This document shows, in pieces, positions 7,692-49,832 of a stretch of 64,000 bases of DNA. The position numbers and the translations under genes were made by a program. The stretch's first letter is position 1, and each line of letters begins with the position of its first letter. The notes under the pieces were generated by a model that saw only the letters and a program-made list of their open reading frames with translations, did not search any database and had not been told where the DNA came from. The stretch covers positions 1 to 64,000 of IMG/VR virus record IMGVR_UViG_2576861193_000004. One strand, given 5' to 3'. This stretch comes from a virus (taxonomy: Duplodnaviria; Heunggongvirae; Uroviricota; Caudoviricetes).

Positions 7692-7869
7692 GTTGGTTTG
7701 CAAGACAGACCTTATGTAAGCAGTTTTAGTAAAGCAGTCTCAGTTCAGTGTTATCTTCTGATTTCCCTTCTTCGTGAGTCTCCTCCTTAAGTGCCTAAGT
7801 AAGTCCCAATCTATACAGATCAAATTCTCGCCGCACTATGTGGCTCACAAAATTAAGAAGGTAATATCT
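7692..7869 (+). promoter_or_regulatory. long cspA-like 5' untranslated leader (candidate RNA thermosensor / cold box)
   Basis: About 178-nt leader with segments resembling the E. coli cspA leader (CAGACC, AAAGCAG, GTAGTAA, AAGGTAATA before the ATG). Compared from memory. Confidence 0.45.
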
Positions 7870-8085
7870 ATGTCTAATAAAATGACTGGTTTAGTAAAAT
7901 GGTTTAACTCTGATAAAGGCTTTGGCTTTATTTCTCCTGCTGATGGCAGTAAAGATGTTTTTGTACATTTTTCGGCAATTCAGAGTAATAATTTCCGCAC
8001 TTTGGAAGAAGGCCAGCAGGTCGAATTCTCTATCGAGAATGGGGCTAAAGGCCCAGCAGCAGCAAATGTCGTTGCTCTAAGCTGA
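7870..8085 (+). CDS. csp: cold-shock protein, CspA family
   Basis: 70 aa [38 protein letters not shown]... with RNP1/RNP2 motifs, near-identical in pattern to E. coli CspA/CspB/CspG; AAGAAGG Shine-Dalgarno 7 nt upstream. Confidence 0.95.
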
Positions 8086-8173
8086 TTCAACGCTGATGAT
8101 CCTCATTTCTACAATAACGAAGACGGTGTAAGCCTGAGTGGATAGATTTGTAGGATTGTACAAGTTGAATAAA

Positions 8174-18586: not shown

Positions 18587-18673
18587 TGGCGGAGAGTAAT
18601 GGAATCGAACCATCATCGCTTGCGCAATGGGACGGTTTTCAAGACCGCTTGAGCACCATGCTCCCTACTCTCC
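18587..18673 (-). tRNA. tRNA-Ser: tRNA-Ser (anticodon UGA), type II with long variable arm
   Basis: Manual fold of the reverse complement: 7-bp acceptor stem GGAGAGT/ACTCTCC, discriminator G, encoded CCA, T-loop TTCGATT, anticodon loop CTTGAAA. 87 nt. Confidence 0.8.
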
Positions 18674-18772
18674 AGCTATTGTGATGGTCGGTGCTGAACT
18701 CCGACACAGGGTTGTAGCAAGCCCCGCAAAGCGCGCACTACTGTAGTTGCGGCACATCAGCCTGTGCATTCA

Positions 18773-18862
18773 TCACAACGGTAAGATCACTACCTTTCGA
18801 CCAGTCATTGTGCACATGAACGACGATTAACCGTAATGATCTTATCGTTGTGTTGTGAAGCC
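18773..18862. repeat. long stem-loop 1 in tRNA spacer (arms CACAACGGTAAGATCA / TGATCTTATCGTTGTG)
   Basis: About 17-bp inverted arms with one mismatch, separated by about 50 nt; paralogous to stem-loop 2. Confidence 0.6.
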
Positions 18863-18900
18863 AGATGCTTATCTTCTGGTTGCTTCAAAGAGCTGCACTT

Positions 18901-18996
18901 CCTCACAACGGTAAGAGCACTGGTCTGACTCTATCGATTTACGGGCTTGTGGGTCAGTATCGCCGATTCGCCCAATGCTCTTACCTGTTGTGTTGG
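18901..18996. repeat. long stem-loop 2 in tRNA spacer (arms CACAACGGTAAGAGCA / TGCTCTTACCTGTTGTG)
   Basis: About 17-bp inverted arms separated by about 50 nt; right arm abuts the 3' end of tRNA-Thr. Confidence 0.6.
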
Positions 18997-19069
18997 TGCC
19001 GGTTAACGGGATCGAACCGCTGACATCCTGCTTACAAGGCAGGCGCTCTACCAACTGAGCTAAACCGGC
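18994..19069 (-). tRNA. tRNA-Thr: tRNA-Thr (anticodon UGU)
   Basis: Reverse complement GCCGGTTTAGCTCAGTTGGTAGAGCGCCTGCCTTGTAAGCAGG...GGTTCGATCC...AACCGGCACCA: D-stem GCTC/GAGC, anticodon stem CCTGC/GCAGG, loop CTTGTAA. 76 nt. Confidence 0.85.
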
Positions 19070-19073
19070 AATT

Positions 19074-19160
19074 TGGTGGGGAGTGATGGAGTCGAACCAC
19101 CCGAGTCGCAATGACAGTAGATTTACAGTCTACCCCGCTGCCCCTACGGACTAACTCCCC
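19074..19160 (-). tRNA. tRNA-Tyr: tRNA-Tyr (anticodon GUA), type II
   Basis: Acceptor GGGGAGT/ACTCCCC, anticodon arm GTAGA-CTGTAAA-TCTAC, long variable arm, T-loop TTCGACT, CCA encoded. 87 nt. Confidence 0.8.
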
Positions 19161-19165
19161 TAAAT

Positions 19166-19240
19166 TGGCGATGGTGGGTGGATTCGAACCACCGACCAGT
19201 TGGTTAACAGCCAACTGCTCTACCGCTGAGCTACACCATC
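19166..19240 (-). tRNA. tRNA-Asn: tRNA-Asn (anticodon GUU)
   Basis: Acceptor GATGGTG/CACCATC, D-arm GCTC-AGCGGTA-GAGC, anticodon arm GTTGG-CTGTTAA-CCAAC, T-arm GGTGG-TTCGAAT-CCACC, CCA encoded. 75 nt. Confidence 0.85.
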
Positions 19241-31594: not shown

Positions 31595-32176
31595 TTACTC
31601 TGCTGGTATTGTTGGCCACTCAATATCAGGTGCAGTTGATGTATCAACACGGTTCAGCAACACCCGATACTTTTTCCAGGCTTCCAGCAATGAGTTTTCT
31701 TCCTCCGTTGCGATTTCCAGATCTACAGCATCCTGAAGTGGCGCAATATGCTCACTGGCTACCTGCATCAGGTTGTTTTTTGTTTCTTCCGCCTCCCGGA
31801 TCCGGAACAGTTTTTCTGCTTCCGTATCCTTCAACCAGGCTGTGCCGTTCCACTTCTGATATTCCCCTTCCGGCGATAACCAGGTAACATTTTCCGGTAA
31901 CGGACCGAGTTCAGAAATAAATAACGCGTCGCCGGAAGCCACGTCATAAACCGTTTTACCCCGATGATCTTCAACGAGATGCCACGATGACTCATCACTG
32001 TTGAAAACAGCCACGAAGCCAGCCGGAATATCTGGCGGTGCAATATCGGTACTGTTTGCAGGCAGACCTGTATGAGGTGGAATATATGCGTCACCGTCAC
32101 CAATAAATTCATTAGTTCCGGACAACAGATTATAAATTTTTATGGTCCGTGCTTGTTCACTCATTCTGAATGCCAT
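31595..32176 (-). CDS. tfa: tail fiber assembly protein (Tfa, lambda Tfa / T4 gp38-like)
   Basis: 193 aa; start overlaps the stop of the fiber gene; typical Tfa layout and sequence character. Confidence 0.8.
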
Positions 32177-43715: not shown

Positions 43716-46700
43716 TTAGTTACGTTGAGTGTTTGGGTTGAGTGATCCGCCAGGGCGTTTCTCTTGAGCGATAGTCTCAAGCGCGATTGCTTTCATCCGT
43801 TGAGCGGCATTGTTCCATATGCTTTCTGTATCGCCGGATTCTGTCGTGCTACCGTCACTATGGACGTTGATCTCAATTGATACAGGAGAAAGAACATTTC
43901 CGCCTCCACTCATACCATCGGTACTGAGCGTTACAGGGATTGTTCGGCCATCAGGCAATGGAACATACGCCTCATTCATAGAACCTTCCCCAAACAACGC
44001 TAATTGAGGCGAGTTAGCAATACCGCCTTTCTGGTATGCCCGGAGCGGGATCACGCCGTCTTTTCCGAATATTCCTCCATTTGCAAACTTCGGGATTGCA
44101 GGAATGCCTTTAGTTCCGTCAGCCACACTGCTGGTTGCGGTTTTAGCAGAGCTTGATGTCACGCTGTCGAAACCACCGCCAGCCCAAGCTGAAACAAGAC
44201 CAGATGCAACCGTTGCTCCAAAACTCAACCACTTATTACCAGAGCCGGAAGCATTAGCTCCAAGCATTGCAAACGCGGCAGACAGCGCGCCGGTAACAGA
44301 GCTTAGGTTCTGCATCGAGAAGATGGAGTCCTTCACTGCTTTTGTCTCAGCATCTTTGGCTTCAGTGCTATCAAATAGCCCTGATACCCAGCTACCAATC
44401 GCATTTGTTGCTGTGCCAATTGCGCTGGTGGTCTGCTGTGTTGTTTGCCCCAATCCAGTTACCGAACTGGACGTCTCCTTCGTGGCTTCTCCTACTGACT
44501 TGTCGCCGTTAACAGTGTTACCCATTCGTACACCTTGATTGGCAACTGCGGAAGCAACCCCGGTGAGCAAATTACCACTCTGTAAACTACCAGCTGCGGT
44601 GGTTCCCATCCCCAACATGTTCATTAGAGGCAGCGTGATCTGCGACTTCACGACCATATTGGTGATATCTTTCAAAATGGACTGAGATAGGCTGGAGAAG
44701 CTCATCTTCCCGTTAATAACGAAATCAGTCAGGACATCAGTTAAGCCACTAAACAAATCAGTCCAGGTGCTTTCGATCTGCTCTGCCAGGTTTTCGTATT
44801 CCAGTGCCAACTTCTGCGTCGCAGTCCCCGTCTCTTTAATAAGCGCGGTATTGCCAGCAGCAATCAGTTGATTGATTTTCTTTGTATAAAGCGCCACAAC
44901 TTTAGGATCAGACGCCTTATCACGAAGTTCTATCAACGCTTTGAGATTGCGGTTGTAGGTGTCTTCGAAATCAGCAACTTTCTCTTCACGAGACGGCGTA
45001 TAGCCAGCACTAATAATGGAATCCGACTCCGGTGCCCAGGTGGAGATCATTTGCTCAACATTGCGGCGATTAAACATCTCGCGATATTCAGGTGTCGCAT
45101 TTTTGAGGTCTTCAAGACGTTTTTTCGCCTTGTCGATCATCTCTTGAGTGATGAACTCGTTAGGAACCGCATTAGCCAAATCAGTCAGCGATTTCGTTGT
45201 ATCGCGAAGAGACTGATCAAACGATACCGTAGCCTTAGAGCTTTCACCCATTTGCCCCATAAGCTGATCGGCTTTGTCCAGAGCCTTCTGGTATCCGGCT
45301 GCCAGTTTCTGTTGCGCTGCCTGTTCCTTCTTGGCCGCACGCTGCGAGGCGTTAGCTGATCGTTGGGCTGCTTTCTCGGCTGCTGCTGCATCCTGTTCAC
45401 GAGCTTTAGTCAGTGCGGCAATGGCTGCGGCACGCTCTTCATCGCTCATTTTCTCCAGAGAGCTGGCACTGGATGCTTTCTGCAAATTAAGCTGCGTCTT
45501 GAGTTGTTTAGGCCCAATAATCGGCTTACCTTCGAAGTCCATCATCGGAGTGCCGTCAGGCAAAGTACGTTGATAAGTCGCAGAATCCATCTGGTTTCGC
45601 ATATATTGCGCCAGCGCCTTCTGAGCTGCTTTATCAGTTGTACCTAACCCCAGAACAGTCCCCTGGTTTGACATTACGCCCTTACCAGTTTTGGCCGCGT
45701 TATCTCTCTCGAACTCTGCCTGAGTCAGTTCCTGAGCGACGACTTCCAAATTCTCCTGATAACCACGAATACTGCCTTGCAGTTTCTTGATCTGCTCGGT
45801 GTTTCCTTCCTTTTTCGCTTTTTCAAGCTGATCATTAAGAGTGGCTATTTGCCCCTCGACAGCATTCTTACGAGAAGAAAGTGAATCAACCAGTTTTTGC
45901 GCAGGCTCCAGATAGCTTTTGTTTACCGTTTCACGTAACGGTGCCAATAGTTTGTTCTTTTCGTCATCAGAAAGTGAATCGTCATCATTGATTTTTTGGA
46001 TCTTCTCCAGAGCCTCTTGACGAGCTTTAGCGAATGTTGCCGCAAAGTCTCTATTCTCTTCCCGTATTTTCTCTATCTGTGATTCTGCCGCATCTTTTGC
46101 AAGACGTTTGGCTACAGCAATGTCTCCGCGTTCAATTGCCCCAGTAGTTTTATCGCGTTTCTTACGAAGGTCATTTAGCTCATTTTCTATACGCTTACGT
46201 TCATCCTGATTAATCTTTACTGTAGTTCCGGCCATACCCGGCCCATAAACCACCTTTTCGCCAGATTTTAACTCTTGTTCCTTTTGCGTGATTTGTTGCT
46301 CAAGACGCGCTTTATACTCCGCCATTTGTGCACGTTTGGCCGCTGTCATCGCTTCTGGTATTTTCCTAATCTCGTCAACGACCTTTGAAGTTTCGCTGCG
46401 GAGCATGGTCATGTACGTGATTAGGCCAGCAACAGCTACAGTGGCAACTGTAAATGCTGCCCCTATAGGGTTTGCTGCAATGAACGCCGTTAATCCAGCA
46501 AAAGCGCCTTTAAGCCCCGTAATCGCCCCACGGATGGCGAAAATAAGAGAGGGGATCGGAGCCAGCCCCATACGTGCCGCACGATTGAATCGAGTTACTG
46601 CTGTAGCGCCGAGGTTAAATGGAGTCTGTATGGCGGTCGCCATCGTGGCAAAGGTGCTAACCATCTGGCTGCCTGCGCCAACTACCCCCATGATCCCTGC

Positions 46701-48296
46701 TCGCATCAGTTTGAACGCAACCATCGCGGCCACGACCTTACCGAGATTAATTACCAGCTCTTGGTTCTTTGCTAACCATTGAGCAAGCTGACGCAACCCA
46801 TCGATTGCCGTCGTTAACCCCGAACCTAAAGAATTGGCAAACGAAATCCCTTCGGCGCTATTCATGATTGAAGCCAGTTCTTTCATCCCCTTCGATAGAG
46901 AATCCAGATATCCGGCCTGACCAACCCGATCAGCAAATAACGTGAATGACGTCTGAAGTTGCGCCAGCGCACCTGTGTAGGTTTGCATCATGTCTTTCGC
47001 TGCGTTCTCATTCTCCGCACGCAGACCAACAAACATCAGAGACAACGCCTGTTTTGCCTCAACCGTACCGCTGGCAACGGCTTTAGTCAGTTCCCCCATA
47101 GTGATGCCTGCGGCGTCTGCCATTGCCTGCATCGCGTTAGGAACGGCTTCACCTAATTGCTGACGTAGCTCTTCCATTGACACAACGCCCTTACCGGACA
47201 TCTGCTGAACGGCCACAGCCGCACGTTTCAACAGCTCACTATCACCACCAAAACGAGCAACGGAGTCCACCAGCGCCTTCAGAGAACCATCGGTTGGATC
47301 TAAGCCAGCAGAACGAAACTTCACGAAGGAGTCTGTTAACGCCTGCATCGCGAACGGCGCATTTTGAGCCATGTCTACGATGTACTTCATATCATCAGCG
47401 GCAGCCTGGCCCGGGTTGGACTTCTCCTTATTCAACCCTCGAAGCATCACCCGCATACGTTCCATTTCGGCCGCAGCTTCAACAATAGGCTTCTGCCACC
47501 CAAACATGATGTCAGTAACCGTTCTGGCTGCATCTCCGATCTCGCCAAGCAGGAAAATGTTGCCACGAAGGCCAGAGAACATACCTCCTTCGTTACTTTT
47601 ACCGCTATGGCCAGAAGCGCCGCTACGCCGCCCGCTACCACCATCGCCACTTCCAGATGTACGAACGCGTACCGGCTTGCTAATCAGTTGCTGACGTCCG
47701 ATAACTTCGTCCATCTGCTCACGAACCTTTTTCAGTCCCTCGGCAGCCTGACTCGTTGTGACACCCCAATTACTGAGTCGCTTCGTCGTGGTATTAAGGC
47801 GCGTATTCATGCCACTCACGGACGCAGAGGCTTCTTTGACCTCCGTACCAAAGCGGCTTGCGCTTTTGCTTGCATAGGTCGCCCAATCAGAGAAATCATT
47901 TAGCTCTGATTGCACTTTACGTAATGACGCGGTGAGTTTATCTACTGAAGAAGTTGTCGTATCGACGCGCTCAATCAGGGCTTTAAGACCAGAATTGAGG
48001 CTGGTGATGTTGCCACGCATTTTACGCGTAGCATCTGAAGCAAGCTCAAAACCGGCAGCTACATCCTGTAGTTTATCTGCCGTAGAATCGAGCTTGCTTT
48101 CCAGAACGCCAATGATACGGGCGACCGAACCCAAAGAGCGTTCAAAGGTTTGGATTTTTTGAGCAGGCTTTGTTACCTGCTCACCAAATCGAGTAAGCAG
48201 TTTCCCCGCACGATCGATTGACGCTGTAAACTGTTTGTCTTCCAGCGACAGGATAAACTCTACGTTTTGTGACATTCCCTTGTCATCCTCTGCCAA
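43716..48296 (-). CDS. tail tape measure protein
   Basis: 1526 aa, long helical regions, internal hydrophobic segments and Gly/Ala-rich stretches; directly downstream of the G/T chaperone genes. Confidence 0.85.
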   Translation of the reverse strand: MAEDDKGMSQNVEFILSLEDKQFTASIDRAGKLLTRFGEQVTKPAQKIQTFERSLGSVARIIGVLESKLDSTADKLQDVAAGFELASDATRKMRGNITSLNSGLKALIERVDTTTSSVDKLTASLRKVQSELNDFSDWATYASKSASRFGTEVKEASASVSGMNTRLNTTTKRLSNWGVTTSQAAEGLKKVREQMDEVIGRQQLISKPVRVRTSGSGDGGSGRRSGASGHSGKSNEGGMFSGLRGNIFLLGEIGDAARTVTDIMFGWQKPIVEAAAEMERMRVMLRGLNKEKSNPGQAAADDMKYIVDMAQNAPFAMQALTDSFVKFRSAGLDPTDGSLKALVDSVARFGGDSELLKRAAVAVQQMSGKGVVSMEELRQQLGEAVPNAMQAMADAAGITMGELTKAVASGTVEAKQALSLMFVGLRAENENAAKDMMQTYTGALAQLQTSFTLFADRVGQAGYLDSLSKGMKELASIMNSAEGISFANSLGSGLTTAIDGLRQLAQWLAKNQELVINLGKVVAAMVAFKLMRAGIMGVVGAGSQMVSTFATMATAIQTPFNLGATAVTRFNRAARMGLAPIPSLIFAIRGAITGLKGAFAGLTAFIAANPIGAAFTVATVAVAGLITYMTMLRSETSKVVDEIRKIPEAMTAAKRAQMAEYKARLEQQITQKEQELKSGEKVVYGPGMAGTTVKINQDERKRIENELNDLRKKRDKTTGAIERGDIAVAKRLAKDAAESQIEKIREENRDFAATFAKARQEALEKIQKINDDDSLSDDEKNKLLAPLRETVNKSYLEPAQKLVDSLSSRKNAVEGQIATLNDQLEKAKKEGNTEQIKKLQGSIRGYQENLEVVAQELTQAEFERDNAAKTGKGVMSNQGTVLGLGTTDKAAQKALAQYMRNQMDSATYQRTLPDGTPMMDFEGKPIIGPKQLKTQLNLQKASSASSLEKMSDEERAAAIAALTKAREQDAAAAEKAAQRSANASQRAAKKEQAAQQKLAAGYQKALDKADQLMGQMGESSKATVSFDQSLRDTTKSLTDLANAVPNEFITQEMIDKAKKRLEDLKNATPEYREMFNRRNVEQMISTWAPESDSIISAGYTPSREEKVADFEDTYNRNLKALIELRDKASDPKVVALYTKKINQLIAAGNTALIKETGTATQKLALEYENLAEQIESTWTDLFSGLTDVLTDFVINGKMSFSSLSQSILKDITNMVVKSQITLPLMNMLGMGTTAAGSLQSGNLLTGVASAVANQGVRMGNTVNGDKSVGEATKETSSSVTGLGQTTQQTTSAIGTATNAIGSWVSGLFDSTEAKDAETKAVKDSIFSMQNLSSVTGALSAAFAMLGANASGSGNKWLSFGATVASGLVSAWAGGGFDSVTSSSAKTATSSVADGTKGIPAIPKFANGGIFGKDGVIPLRAYQKGGIANSPQLALFGEGSMNEAYVPLPDGRTIPVTLSTDGMSGGGNVLSPVSIEINVHSDGSTTESGDTESIWNNAAQRMKAIALETIAQEKRPGGSLNPNTQRN

Positions 48297-48665
48297 ATAT
48301 TTGCATCAGTTGCTCTTTGGCGTCAGGGTCTGCCTTATCCTGGCTTGGATCGTAGACTTTATCTGTTACGACTGGTCTTCCAATCCTGAGTTGCAAACCC
48401 TCCATGAACGCCTTCACAGCCTCGCCATCCGCCTGGGACGCACGAGCGACTTGTAAGTTGCGGACATCCTCTTCCGCACGCAGACGGTCTATATTGCGAC
48501 TGAGCATCCAGAACATCGTGAGAGGAACGTTCAGTAGCTCTAATGGCGACACGGCGTAGTGAGCAACTACACGACTGAAATAGAATCCGAGATCTATTGA
48601 GACGGTCCTTGTCCCGGATTCATCGCGGGAAATTACTTTGCCCCTTCGCCAGCCGCTTTTTCGTT
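48283..48665 (-). CDS. tail assembly chaperone T-frame segment (expressed as G-T fusion by -1 frameshift, putative)
   Basis: Open frame overlapping the last 12 codons of the G-like gene in the -1 frame and continuing to 48283; synteny with lambda G/T. Confidence 0.55.
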
Positions 48666-48950
48666 TTCTTCATCAATCACTTCCATAGCGAAGGTGAAGA
48701 TCTGCTGGAGTTGCGGAACAGTCAGTTTTTCAAGAACTTCGTCAGGTACTGAAGGGATAACCTTACGAACCAGATCTGCATAAGCTGTCACTTGCTCAAC
48801 AGGAGACATGTTCTTGAGATCTTTGCCTTCCATCTGCTTGATGGAAACAAAGAGGCCGACGGTCATTTCAACGATGGGATATTCTTTGCCACCAAATTTG
48901 ATGCTTTTTTTCGGCGGCAGAATGGAGTCGAGATCGAGTAATTTGGTCAT
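48633..48950 (-). CDS. tail assembly chaperone (lambda gpG-like)
   Basis: 105 aa acidic protein immediately downstream of the major tail gene, followed by the overlapping T-frame. Confidence 0.75.
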   Translation of the reverse strand: MTKLLDLDSILPPKKSIKFGGKEYPIVEMTVGLFVSIKQMEGKDLKNMSPVEQVTAYADLVRKVIPSVPDEVLEKLTVPQLQQIFTFAMEVIDEENEKAAGEGAK

Positions 48951-48960
48951 GGTTTAAATC

Positions 48961-48997
48961 CTTTTAAACTCATACAGAGGCCCATCCATGGGCCTCT
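48961..48997 (-). terminator. hairpin (attenuator/terminator candidate) between major tail and chaperone genes
   Basis: Perfect 10-bp stem agaggcccat / atgggcctct; weakly U-rich tail on the minus strand. Confidence 0.4.
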
Positions 48998-49011
48998 TGG
49001 GTTATCACAAT

Positions 49012-49758
49012 TTAGCTTGCGGCAGTTACAGAGACGGCTTTGGTCGCCTTCTTGGCACCGTCATTAGTTGTGAAGGTGATATTGGCTGAACCGACAGCTT
49101 TACCAGTTACCAGTCCGTTCTGATCTACGGTCGCTTTATCAGTCGCATCAGAGCTCCACACGCCAGTCTTATTGGTTGCATCGGCCGGGGTGAAGGTTGC
49201 GCTCAATTGAACTTTAGTGCCCACTTTTACGGTCGGTGAAGACGGGGTCAGCGTGACGCTCTCAACCGGCTTTGGGAGGCTCATTTTCCCCAACACGCCA
49301 GCGTCGTCCGGGTAAGCGGAAAACTCAACTGAGAACACGCGAACGTCGTCAGACTGGTAGGTCATGGTGAAGTTACCCGCGGTTGCTGCTTTAGGGATGG
49401 TCAGAACATAATCCGTCGCATCCTGCGGGGTCAGCACCAACTCTTTCGCAACGTCGATCAGGTTCACTCCCTGCGCAGACGTGATGGTTACGGTATCTTC
49501 GCCAGAACTCAGCGTGGAACCTGGCATCAGATCGACCATGTTTTTCAACACGGATTCAGCCAGCGGCGCAGTAATGGTGATGTTGCGGCCCTGGATCAGC
49601 TCGGAGATCGTGGTCTGGCCCAGCTGGTCTACGGTCACTTTCAGCGTTTCGGTTGCGATTTCAACCTGAACACCACCTTTGGTGTAACCCAAATCCACAC
49701 CACCAAACGACACCTTACAGGCACCAAGTTTGATGTTTTTTACATGGGTATTAGACAT
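49012..49758 (-). CDS. major tail protein (lambda gpV-like) with C-terminal Ig-like (Big_2) domain
   Basis: Start at ATG 49758 with AAGGAG Shine-Dalgarno 9 nt upstream; C-terminal region shows the Big_2-type pattern (TVKVGTKVQLSATFTPADATNKTGVWSS...). Confidence 0.85.
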   Translation of the reverse strand: MSNTHVKNIKLGACKVSFGGVDLGYTKGGVQVEIATETLKVTVDQLGQTTISELIQGRNITITAPLAESVLKNMVDLMPGSTLSSGEDTVTITSAQGVNLIDVAKELVLTPQDATDYVLTIPKAATAGNFTMTYQSDDVRVFSVEFSAYPDDAGVLGKMSLPKPVESVTLTPSSPTVKVGTKVQLSATFTPADATNKTGVWSSDATDKATVDQNGLVTGKAVGSANITFTTNDGAKKATKAVSVTAAS

Positions 49759-49832
49759 TGATGGAAAACTCCTTTTTCCGTTAATTCTACGCATTCATTG
49801 CGCTAATAGTAAGTATATACTTACCAATTGAG

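Follow-up and report, generated by a model that had tools for sequence, protein, structure and literature searches.

A predicted −1 frameshift at a stop-adjacent A_AAG tetramer in the putative tail assembly chaperone genes of SSU5-type phage-plasmids

How is a reading frame expressed that has no conserved start codon and that is not preceded by a recognizable slippery heptamer? The question is raised by a pair of overlapping open reading frames, here called G and T by analogy with phage lambda, that lie between the major tail and tape measure genes in a stretch of 64,000 nucleotides of viral DNA (hereafter, the window). A first-pass annotation had pointed out that the T frame is open in −1 across the end of G and that the overlap lacks a canonical site, and had left two options: either the ribosome shifts at a non-canonical site, possibly at low efficiency, or T is made in another way. 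The comparison of related and distant loci presented here favours the first of these options and points to a short motif, A_AAG, that abuts the stop codon of G.

The overlapping frames and their setting

All the genes of the region are carried by the minus strand, in the order major tail – G – T – tape measure. The major tail protein gene (49012–49794, 260 aa), located directly upstream of G, encodes a C-terminal Ig-like Big_2 domain (Pfam, E = 4.9e-23) and matches PHROG major tail and Ig-domain families. The G-like ORF (48633–48950) encodes 105 aa ending with AAGEGAK and matches phrog_893 (E = 4e-49); its 3' end reads GAA GGG GCA AAG TAA (terminal sequence, GAAGGGGCAAAGTAA). The UAA stop (48633–48635), which directly follows the predicted shift codon and is replaced by UAG in some relatives, overlaps the T-frame codons GUA and AUU. 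From this GUA, the T frame runs for 117 codons (48283–48636, beginning VISRDESG) to a TGA at 48283–48285 and matches phrog_1131 (E = 5e-40). The tape measure protein gene (43716–48275 in the ORF list) likely begins with the ATG at 48275, 7 nt past the T stop; in the records of relatives, a 'tape measure protein' also starts 7 nt after T, and the homologue found in two distant loci, L102 and L103, matches the Pfam families TMP_3 and Tape_meas_lam_C. In one relative, the Klebsiella pneumoniae plasmid pCRKP18622-1 (L003), an IS1B transposase is annotated just after T, at the expected start of the tape measure gene, and the tail module of this plasmid is therefore probably disrupted.

Reading of the frames bears out the first-pass annotation. 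The −1 frame is indeed open over the last 12 codons of G, and the coordinates given for it were correct: two consecutive TGA codons occupy 48670–48675, and the frame is then open from 48669, across the G stop, to the TGA at 48283–48285. The overlap comprises 11 full −1 codons ahead of the junction and covers the final 12 codons of G. It contains no in-phase X_XXY_YYZ heptamer, and the closest candidate, G_GCA_AAG, differs by a single base from the lambda site, which reads G_GGA_AAG in NC_001416. The +1 frame, also considered, closes after 5 codons.

The window belongs to an SSU5-type phage-plasmid. The segment is 100% identical to the Escherichia coli plasmid NZ_CP074008.1 and 90–97% identical to phage SSU5, Escherichia phage Cyrano, Klebsiella phage-plasmids and Yersinia pestis pMT1, and the locus is carried by at least 785 plasmids of PLSDB in addition to SSU5-type phage records. 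In the annotated records, both ORFs are called 'hypothetical protein' and no joined feature is found in any of them. Calls of T invariably begin at an internal ATG or GTG (74–89 aa; starts at 48552 or about 48516), so that 117 nt seem to be intergenic.

The location of G between the genes of the major tail (tube) protein and of the tape measure protein is the classical position of a tail assembly chaperone. A Pfam search gave no match for either G or T, and phrog_893 and phrog_1131 are both families of unknown function. The AlphaFold (AF2) model of G has a pLDDT of 71; searched against the PDB, it returned no structural match, and in BFVD the top match of this model, whose pLDDT is only 71, was a 'Tail assembly chaperone' (E = 2.3e-4, TM 0.68), followed by further TAC-labelled proteins. 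Comparison of the G profile with lambda gpG by hhalign gave a probability of 0.1%, i.e. no similarity. G is treated here as an analogue of gpG that may be related to it very remotely, rather than as part of the gpG sequence family; the two ORFs probably form a G/G-T tail assembly chaperone pair.

Another structure of the region is a hairpin at 48976–48999 (minus strand), between the stop of the major tail gene (49012) and the start of G (48950), with the sequence GAGGCCCAU...GGGCCUC. The 65-nt stretch that includes it folds at −21.4 kcal/mol (z = −4.0, 0/200 shuffles as stable) and is not followed by a T-run; it may act as a partial terminator or as an mRNA-stability element that sets the ratio of the major tail transcript to the chaperone/tape measure transcript. 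Elsewhere in the window, two RNA families scored above the Rfam gathering score, a cspA thermoregulator 5' UTR (7692–8110, plus strand, 185.7 bits) and an IS009 small RNA (31635–31833, minus strand, 226.4 bits).

Coding constraint in T and position of the shift

The comparison covered 96 related loci, drawn from plasmids, phages, genomes and viral contigs, which represent 67 distinct G-to-T sequences with nucleotide identities down to 67%. At the level of substitution patterns, this comparison shows that the T frame is coding from the junction onward. In the 39 codons that separate the G stop from the first ATG, the variable sites are distributed 21/6/34 over T-frame positions 1/2/3; G (53/33/87) and the annotated part of T (30/21/62) show this pattern too. 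Over the last 12 codons of G, by contrast, variation (1/3/8) follows the G frame only, with no T-frame constraint upstream of the junction; the constraint on the T frame therefore starts at the junction itself. The N-terminal stretch of T encodes a conserved VI[ST]R.E.G..[ST]IDxGFYFSRV, and the amino-acid conservation of T reaches down to 27% identity in Pseudomonas and Rhizobium phages.

These observations bear on the simplest way in which T could be made without any frameshift, namely ordinary initiation at an internal GTG or ATG. All the annotated public records examined call two separate hypothetical proteins, and start codons do exist in the T frame of the window at codons 29, 41 and 44. 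However, no conserved start codon is found before codons 41–45 of the T frame among the compared loci: the GTG at codon 29 is missing in L003, L006, L015 and others, and the first ATG, GTG or TTG of L003 is codon 45. Yet the 28–44 codons located upstream of these starts are conserved as protein and carry the coding signature given above, the frame is unbroken from the junction to the internal starts in every full-length locus, and distant homologues carry canonical slippery heptamers at the junction. As a conserved N-terminal part that lacks a conserved start codon cannot be produced by independent initiation, this explanation appears improbable, and the option that T is made another way is disfavoured by 39 codons with a coding signature and no conserved start. 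It could also be imagined that the N-terminal stretch of T is unexpressed and is conserved as an RNA or DNA element, since a conserved helix can be drawn in it; but the substitutions are three-periodic, amino-acid conservation extends to 27% identity and the match to a PHROG family covers T, all of which makes such an element an extremely unlikely explanation.

Termination followed by reinitiation would account for translation from the junction by a restart, after the stop at UAA, on the overlapping AUU (codon 2 of T), giving a free T protein. In the window, AUU does overlap the stop (GUA AUU) and an SD-like AAGGGG lies 7 nt upstream. In relatives with a UAG stop, however, the corresponding codon is GUU or GUA, which is no start (L055, L070–L072 and L103), the AAGGGG is missing in L002–L004, L014 and L015, and reinitiation leaves unexplained the invariance of the A at 48639 described below. 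Furthermore, T of lambda acts as part of a fusion (PMC5009743). A restart at the junction is therefore given very little credence.

If the ribosome enters the T frame by a −1 shift, the variation among relatives places that shift within a few codons. In 42 of the 96 loci, a −1-frame TGA arises from a synonymous GGC to GGT change (GGT GAA) and leaves only three overlapping codons; the distant locus L102 is likewise closed by a TGA until three codons ahead of the stop. The shift must therefore take place within GAA-NNN-GYA-AAG, where cognate re-pairing is possible only for AAG to AAA. The predicted shift site is thus the hexanucleotide GCA_AAG (48636–48641, minus strand), within which the slippery tetramer A_AAG (48636–48639) would allow tRNA-Lys to re-pair from AAG to AAA. 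The remainder of the −1-open overlap (48640–48669), which contains GAA_AAA_G and the SD-like AAGGGG, is considered not to be used for shifting.

An event farther upstream, either a ribosomal shift on GAA_AAA_G (A_AAA, 48657–48660) or slippage of the RNA polymerase on the A5 run, has to be weighed against this assignment. In-phase A_AAA and a run of five A (48657–48661) are present in the window, and A_AA.A is weakly shift-prone (PMC4066793). However, the −1 TGA lies between this site and the junction in the 42 relatives mentioned above, three loci (L003, L004 and L015) have GAA GCC instead, and variation in the overlap follows the G frame only. Moreover, five A are too short for productive transcriptional slippage. 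It is thus highly improbable that the T frame is entered at this upstream position.

Conservation at the A_AAG site itself is strict. The junction occurs as 15 haplotypes in the 96 loci, and the sole string common to them is NA_AAG_TAR_T; A_AAG followed by a stop is invariant in 67/67 distinct sequences. Adjacency of A_AAG and stop is kept in the 96 loci and in the distant loci L102–L104. L102 (G 49% identical), reached like L103 through an exhaustive profile search, ends with GCA AAG TAA, and L103 (G 39% identical) with GCA AAG TAG, both with T in the −1 frame. Among the 67 distinct sequences, third codon positions vary in 95 of the 105 codons of G, and only one of the 49 codons of four-fold type, codon 104, has an invariant third base. 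This base is the A at 48639, i.e. the first base of A_AAG. Codon 104 is GCA, or GUA in two sequences, with no other codon seen, and codon 105 is AAG in all of the 67 and AAA in none. Chance alone would place an in-phase A_AAG in roughly 5% of overlaps of 12 codons, which is not rare, and it is the conservation of the motif, i.e. A_AAG plus stop in 67 distinct sequences and a lone invariant third base, that raises it above chance. As far as comparison of sequences can tell, this shows a motif under selection beyond the needs of the encoded protein.

The suggestion of a frameshift at a non-canonical site is thus supported, and within G_GCA_AAG it is the A_AAG half to which the comparison of loci assigns the shift. 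The base ahead of codon 104 varies (G, A or C), and the 5' half of the candidate heptamer is neither slippery nor conserved, which argues for a tetra- or hexanucleotide site read by a single tRNA rather than for a degenerate tandem-slip heptamer. Tandem slippage on G_GCA_AAG was rejected because neither the base in front of codon 104 (G, A or C) nor the codon itself (GCA or GUA) is fixed, and because re-pairing of tRNA-Ala on GGC is impossible.

A run of seven A is also found inside G (48905–48911, minus strand; codons 14–16, CCG AAA AAA AGC). The −1 frame entered from this run stops after about 14 codons, and codon 15 (AAA) accounts for one of only seven third positions that are invariant in G. 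The run could be a slippage site giving a truncated product, or its conservation could simply be that of a Lys.

Predicted slippage and candidate stimulators

Taken at this site, the most likely mechanism is a programmed −1 frameshift by slippage of a single tRNA-Lys from AAG to AAA on A_AAG, which would produce a G-T fusion of 222 aa, a prediction that we hold with good though incomplete confidence. Most ribosomes would stop at the UAA and release G (105 aa), and a minority would slip one base back on the last sense codon. There, the single enterobacterial tRNA-Lys (anticodon UUU) would leave AAG (48636–48638) and re-pair with AAA (48637–48639); decoding would then continue in −1 with GUA AUU UCC, giving a fusion that reads ...AAGEGAK-VISRDESG.... 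The motif would be a minimal Z_ZZN tetramer, A_AAG, in a GCA_AAG context (GUA_AAG in some relatives). As it is not of the X_XXY_YYZ type, only one tRNA finds a cognate codon in the new frame. That the slippage is ribosomal is what we infer, as are its efficiency and its stimulator. A literature search for a frameshift or a fusion protein in SSU5-type elements found no paper.

Tetramers of this kind are documented in E. coli. Among the 16 Z_ZZN tetramers, A_AA.G far exceeds the others in shifting efficiency and reaches up to 5.6% with the IS3 pseudoknot, because pairing of the single tRNA-Lys with AAG is poor whereas its re-pairing with AAA is cognate (PMC4066793). Among elements of the IS1 and IS3 families, 87 use tetramers versus 403 that use heptamers, and a tetramer that lacks a stimulator barely exceeds the background in E. 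coli (0.147% versus 0.112%) (PMC4066793). Natural hexanucleotide sites include G_CGA_AAG in IS1222 and A_CGA_AAG in cdd of Bacillus subtilis, and shifting on NNA_AAG increases when the tRNA of the 5' codon has a greater wobble propensity (PMC5009743). Since lambda requires only about 1 G-T per 30 G (PMC5009743), a weak site would be adequate, and a low efficiency of the shift is plausible. None of the four tRNA genes clustered at 18587–19240 of the window (minus strand; Ser(UGA), Thr(UGU), Tyr(GUA) and Asn(GUU)) is a tRNA-Lys gene; the element therefore supplies no decoder of its own for the shift codon. The tRNAs that decode GCA and GUA carry cmo5U34, in agreement with the class of 5' codons that favours shifting. 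Tetra- and hexanucleotide −1 frameshift sites of the NNA_AAG type were reportedly described by Licznar et al. in 2003.

The slippage could take place at either of two steps. In the first sub-model, AAG would be in the A site with tRNA-Ala or tRNA-Val on GCA or GUA in the P site, aided by a 3' stem-loop; in the second one, AAG would slip in the P site while the stop occupies the A site ('shifty stop'). Both predict an identical protein and are inseparable in silico.

The stem-loop invoked in the first sub-model may correspond to a structure at 48570–48627 (minus strand), which starts 8 nt after AAG and consists of an inner helix (48612–48621/48583–48592) and an outer one (48622–48627/48570–48575). 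It is a candidate stimulator on its conservation, not on its stability: its MFE of −17.9 kcal/mol (z = −0.65) is not significantly lower than that of shuffled sequence. The inner helix, of 8–10 bp, is paired in 18/18 distinct sequences of the SSU5 clade, three of its pairs are changed on both sides, its covariation score is reached by 2/500 shuffles, and its pairing amounts to 98% versus 13–68% in slid controls. The structure falls within coding sequence, and L102 and L103 do not clearly retain it.

Upstream of the motif, SD-like stretches are present in every haplotype, either GGUGA 6 nt or AAGGGG 1 nt from it (spacing 0–6 nt). With energies of −5.7 to −8.7 kcal/mol, they are at or beyond the 5th percentile of the gene (−5.8) in all haplotypes but one; they coincide with conserved Gly-Glu codons, and their sequence and position are not conserved independently of these codons. 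The SD spacing that favours −1 shifts is 10–14 nt, i.e. farther than in this locus.

The third candidate is the stop codon next to the motif; this arrangement is invariant and is met again in distant homologues. A stimulation by the stop would imply P-site slippage. UAA-U is a context in which termination is strong, so that prolonged pausing at the stop is not favoured. That the adjacency of A_AAG and stop is functional, the slip occurring with the P site filled by tRNA-Lys and the A site by the stop, is a tentative and rather doubtful proposal.

Distant homologues, known systems and consequences

Word-indexed protein searches with G and with T retrieved the SSU5 clade only; an exhaustive profile search, which gave 432 hits for the G family, and a tblastn search in which the fused protein was compared with phage records were required to reach the more distant homologues. 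All of these have T in the −1 frame, and in most of them G ends with, or close to, a canonical heptamer, from which it follows that the −1 frameshift is ancestral to the chaperone family. Their T domains have in common the motifs IDFxFxFSR...FW...DR[IL][RQ]A. The shift sites are G_GGA_AAA in Pseudomonas phage hairong and C_CCA_AAG in Pseudomonas phage ZY21 (both Nickievirus), G_GGA_AAG in Rhizobium phage V1VFA-S, G_GGA_AAC in Rhizobium phage RHEph10 and A_AAA_AAA in Stenotrophomonas phage BUCTxx99. In metagenomic loci, the site lies flush with the stop: G_GGA_AAC with TGA (L107), A_AAA_AAG with TAG (L108) and G_GGG_AAG with TAA (L105 and L106). Only three codons overlap in L106, and in these last two loci the shift probably uses the tetramer G_GGG one codon before the stop, another solution that is not a heptamer. 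More generally, many G-family proteins end with GK, GN or KK. The last 12 residues include GK, PK or KK in 90 of 136 full-length G-family representatives; of these 136, 49 end with K and only 5 with AK or VK. Stop-flush shift sites thus seem to be a recurrent feature of the chaperone family. Judged on their sequences, the SSU5 clade and L102/L103 retain only the A-site half (A_AAG) of the usual site. These loci share with the distant homologues a homologous T domain in the −1 frame and a site at, or within a few codons of, the G stop; they differ from them by A_AAG alone in the SSU5 clade, in place of canonical heptamers or G_GGG_AAG.

One close parallel is lambda, whose G / G-T tail assembly chaperone frameshift was reportedly established by Levin, Hendrix and Casjens (1993) and by Xu, Hendrix and Duda (2004). 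As in lambda, two overlapping ORFs separate the major tail gene from the tape measure gene, the second one is in −1, lacks a start and is entered shortly before the first one ends, a fusion protein is expected as a minor product, and the A-site half, A_AAG, is the same. In contrast, lambda uses a full heptamer, G_GGA_AAG, five codons before the stop (GCG GGA AAG, then five sense codons, then the G stop in NC_001416), whereas here the P-site half is GCA or GUA and the site abuts the stop; furthermore, G displays neither detectable similarity to gpG nor a match to a Pfam TAC family.

The site itself resembles the NNA_AAG sites of IS1222 and cdd and the tetramers of IS1 and IS3, which rely on the slip of a single tRNA-Lys from AAG to AAA behind a non-slippery 5' codon ending with A. 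Such sites have a low to moderate efficiency, which depends on stimulators and on the tRNA of the 5' codon (PMC5009743, PMC4066793). Unlike in IS1222 and cdd, the 5' codon is here GCA or GUA instead of CGA and the motif includes the last sense codon, and the gene concerned encodes a phage tail chaperone instead of a transposase or a cytidine deaminase. A different parallel is prfB, in which a +1 shift takes place at CUU_UGA with an upstream SD. Like this 'shifty stop', the junction described here combines a slippery last sense codon with a stop, and an SD-like AAGGGG lies just upstream in the window; but the shift is −1 instead of +1, and the SD-like element is not conserved across the SSU5 clade.

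The locus is therefore an unannotated member of the conserved tail-chaperone frameshift, with a known type of site, A_AAG, placed on the last sense codon. The understanding of frameshifting is unchanged by it, and the site would be mechanistically new only if the stop codon were the stimulator. In that doubtful case, competition with release factors would determine how much G-T is made relative to G, tail assembly of SSU5-type elements, including relatives of Y. pestis pMT1, would be tuned by the termination capacity or growth state of the host, the junction, located in a structural gene, would be to −1 shifting what the prfB-type 'shifty stop' is to +1 shifting, and the stop-flush sites of L105–L108 would reflect a family-wide design rule.

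The main value of the finding concerns annotation. Y. pestis pMT1 and many phage-plasmids of E. coli, Klebsiella and Salmonella are annotated with a false gap of 117 nt, and the true products are very likely G (105 aa) and the predicted G-T fusion (222 aa). PRFect lists no four-base −1 motif (PMC10885494), and tools that seek only heptamers or longer motifs would miss the A_AAG site. Finally, a single protein family provides a natural series that extends from full heptamers to a bare A_AAG, in which it can be asked how little slipperiness is sufficient and what role the adjacent stop may play.
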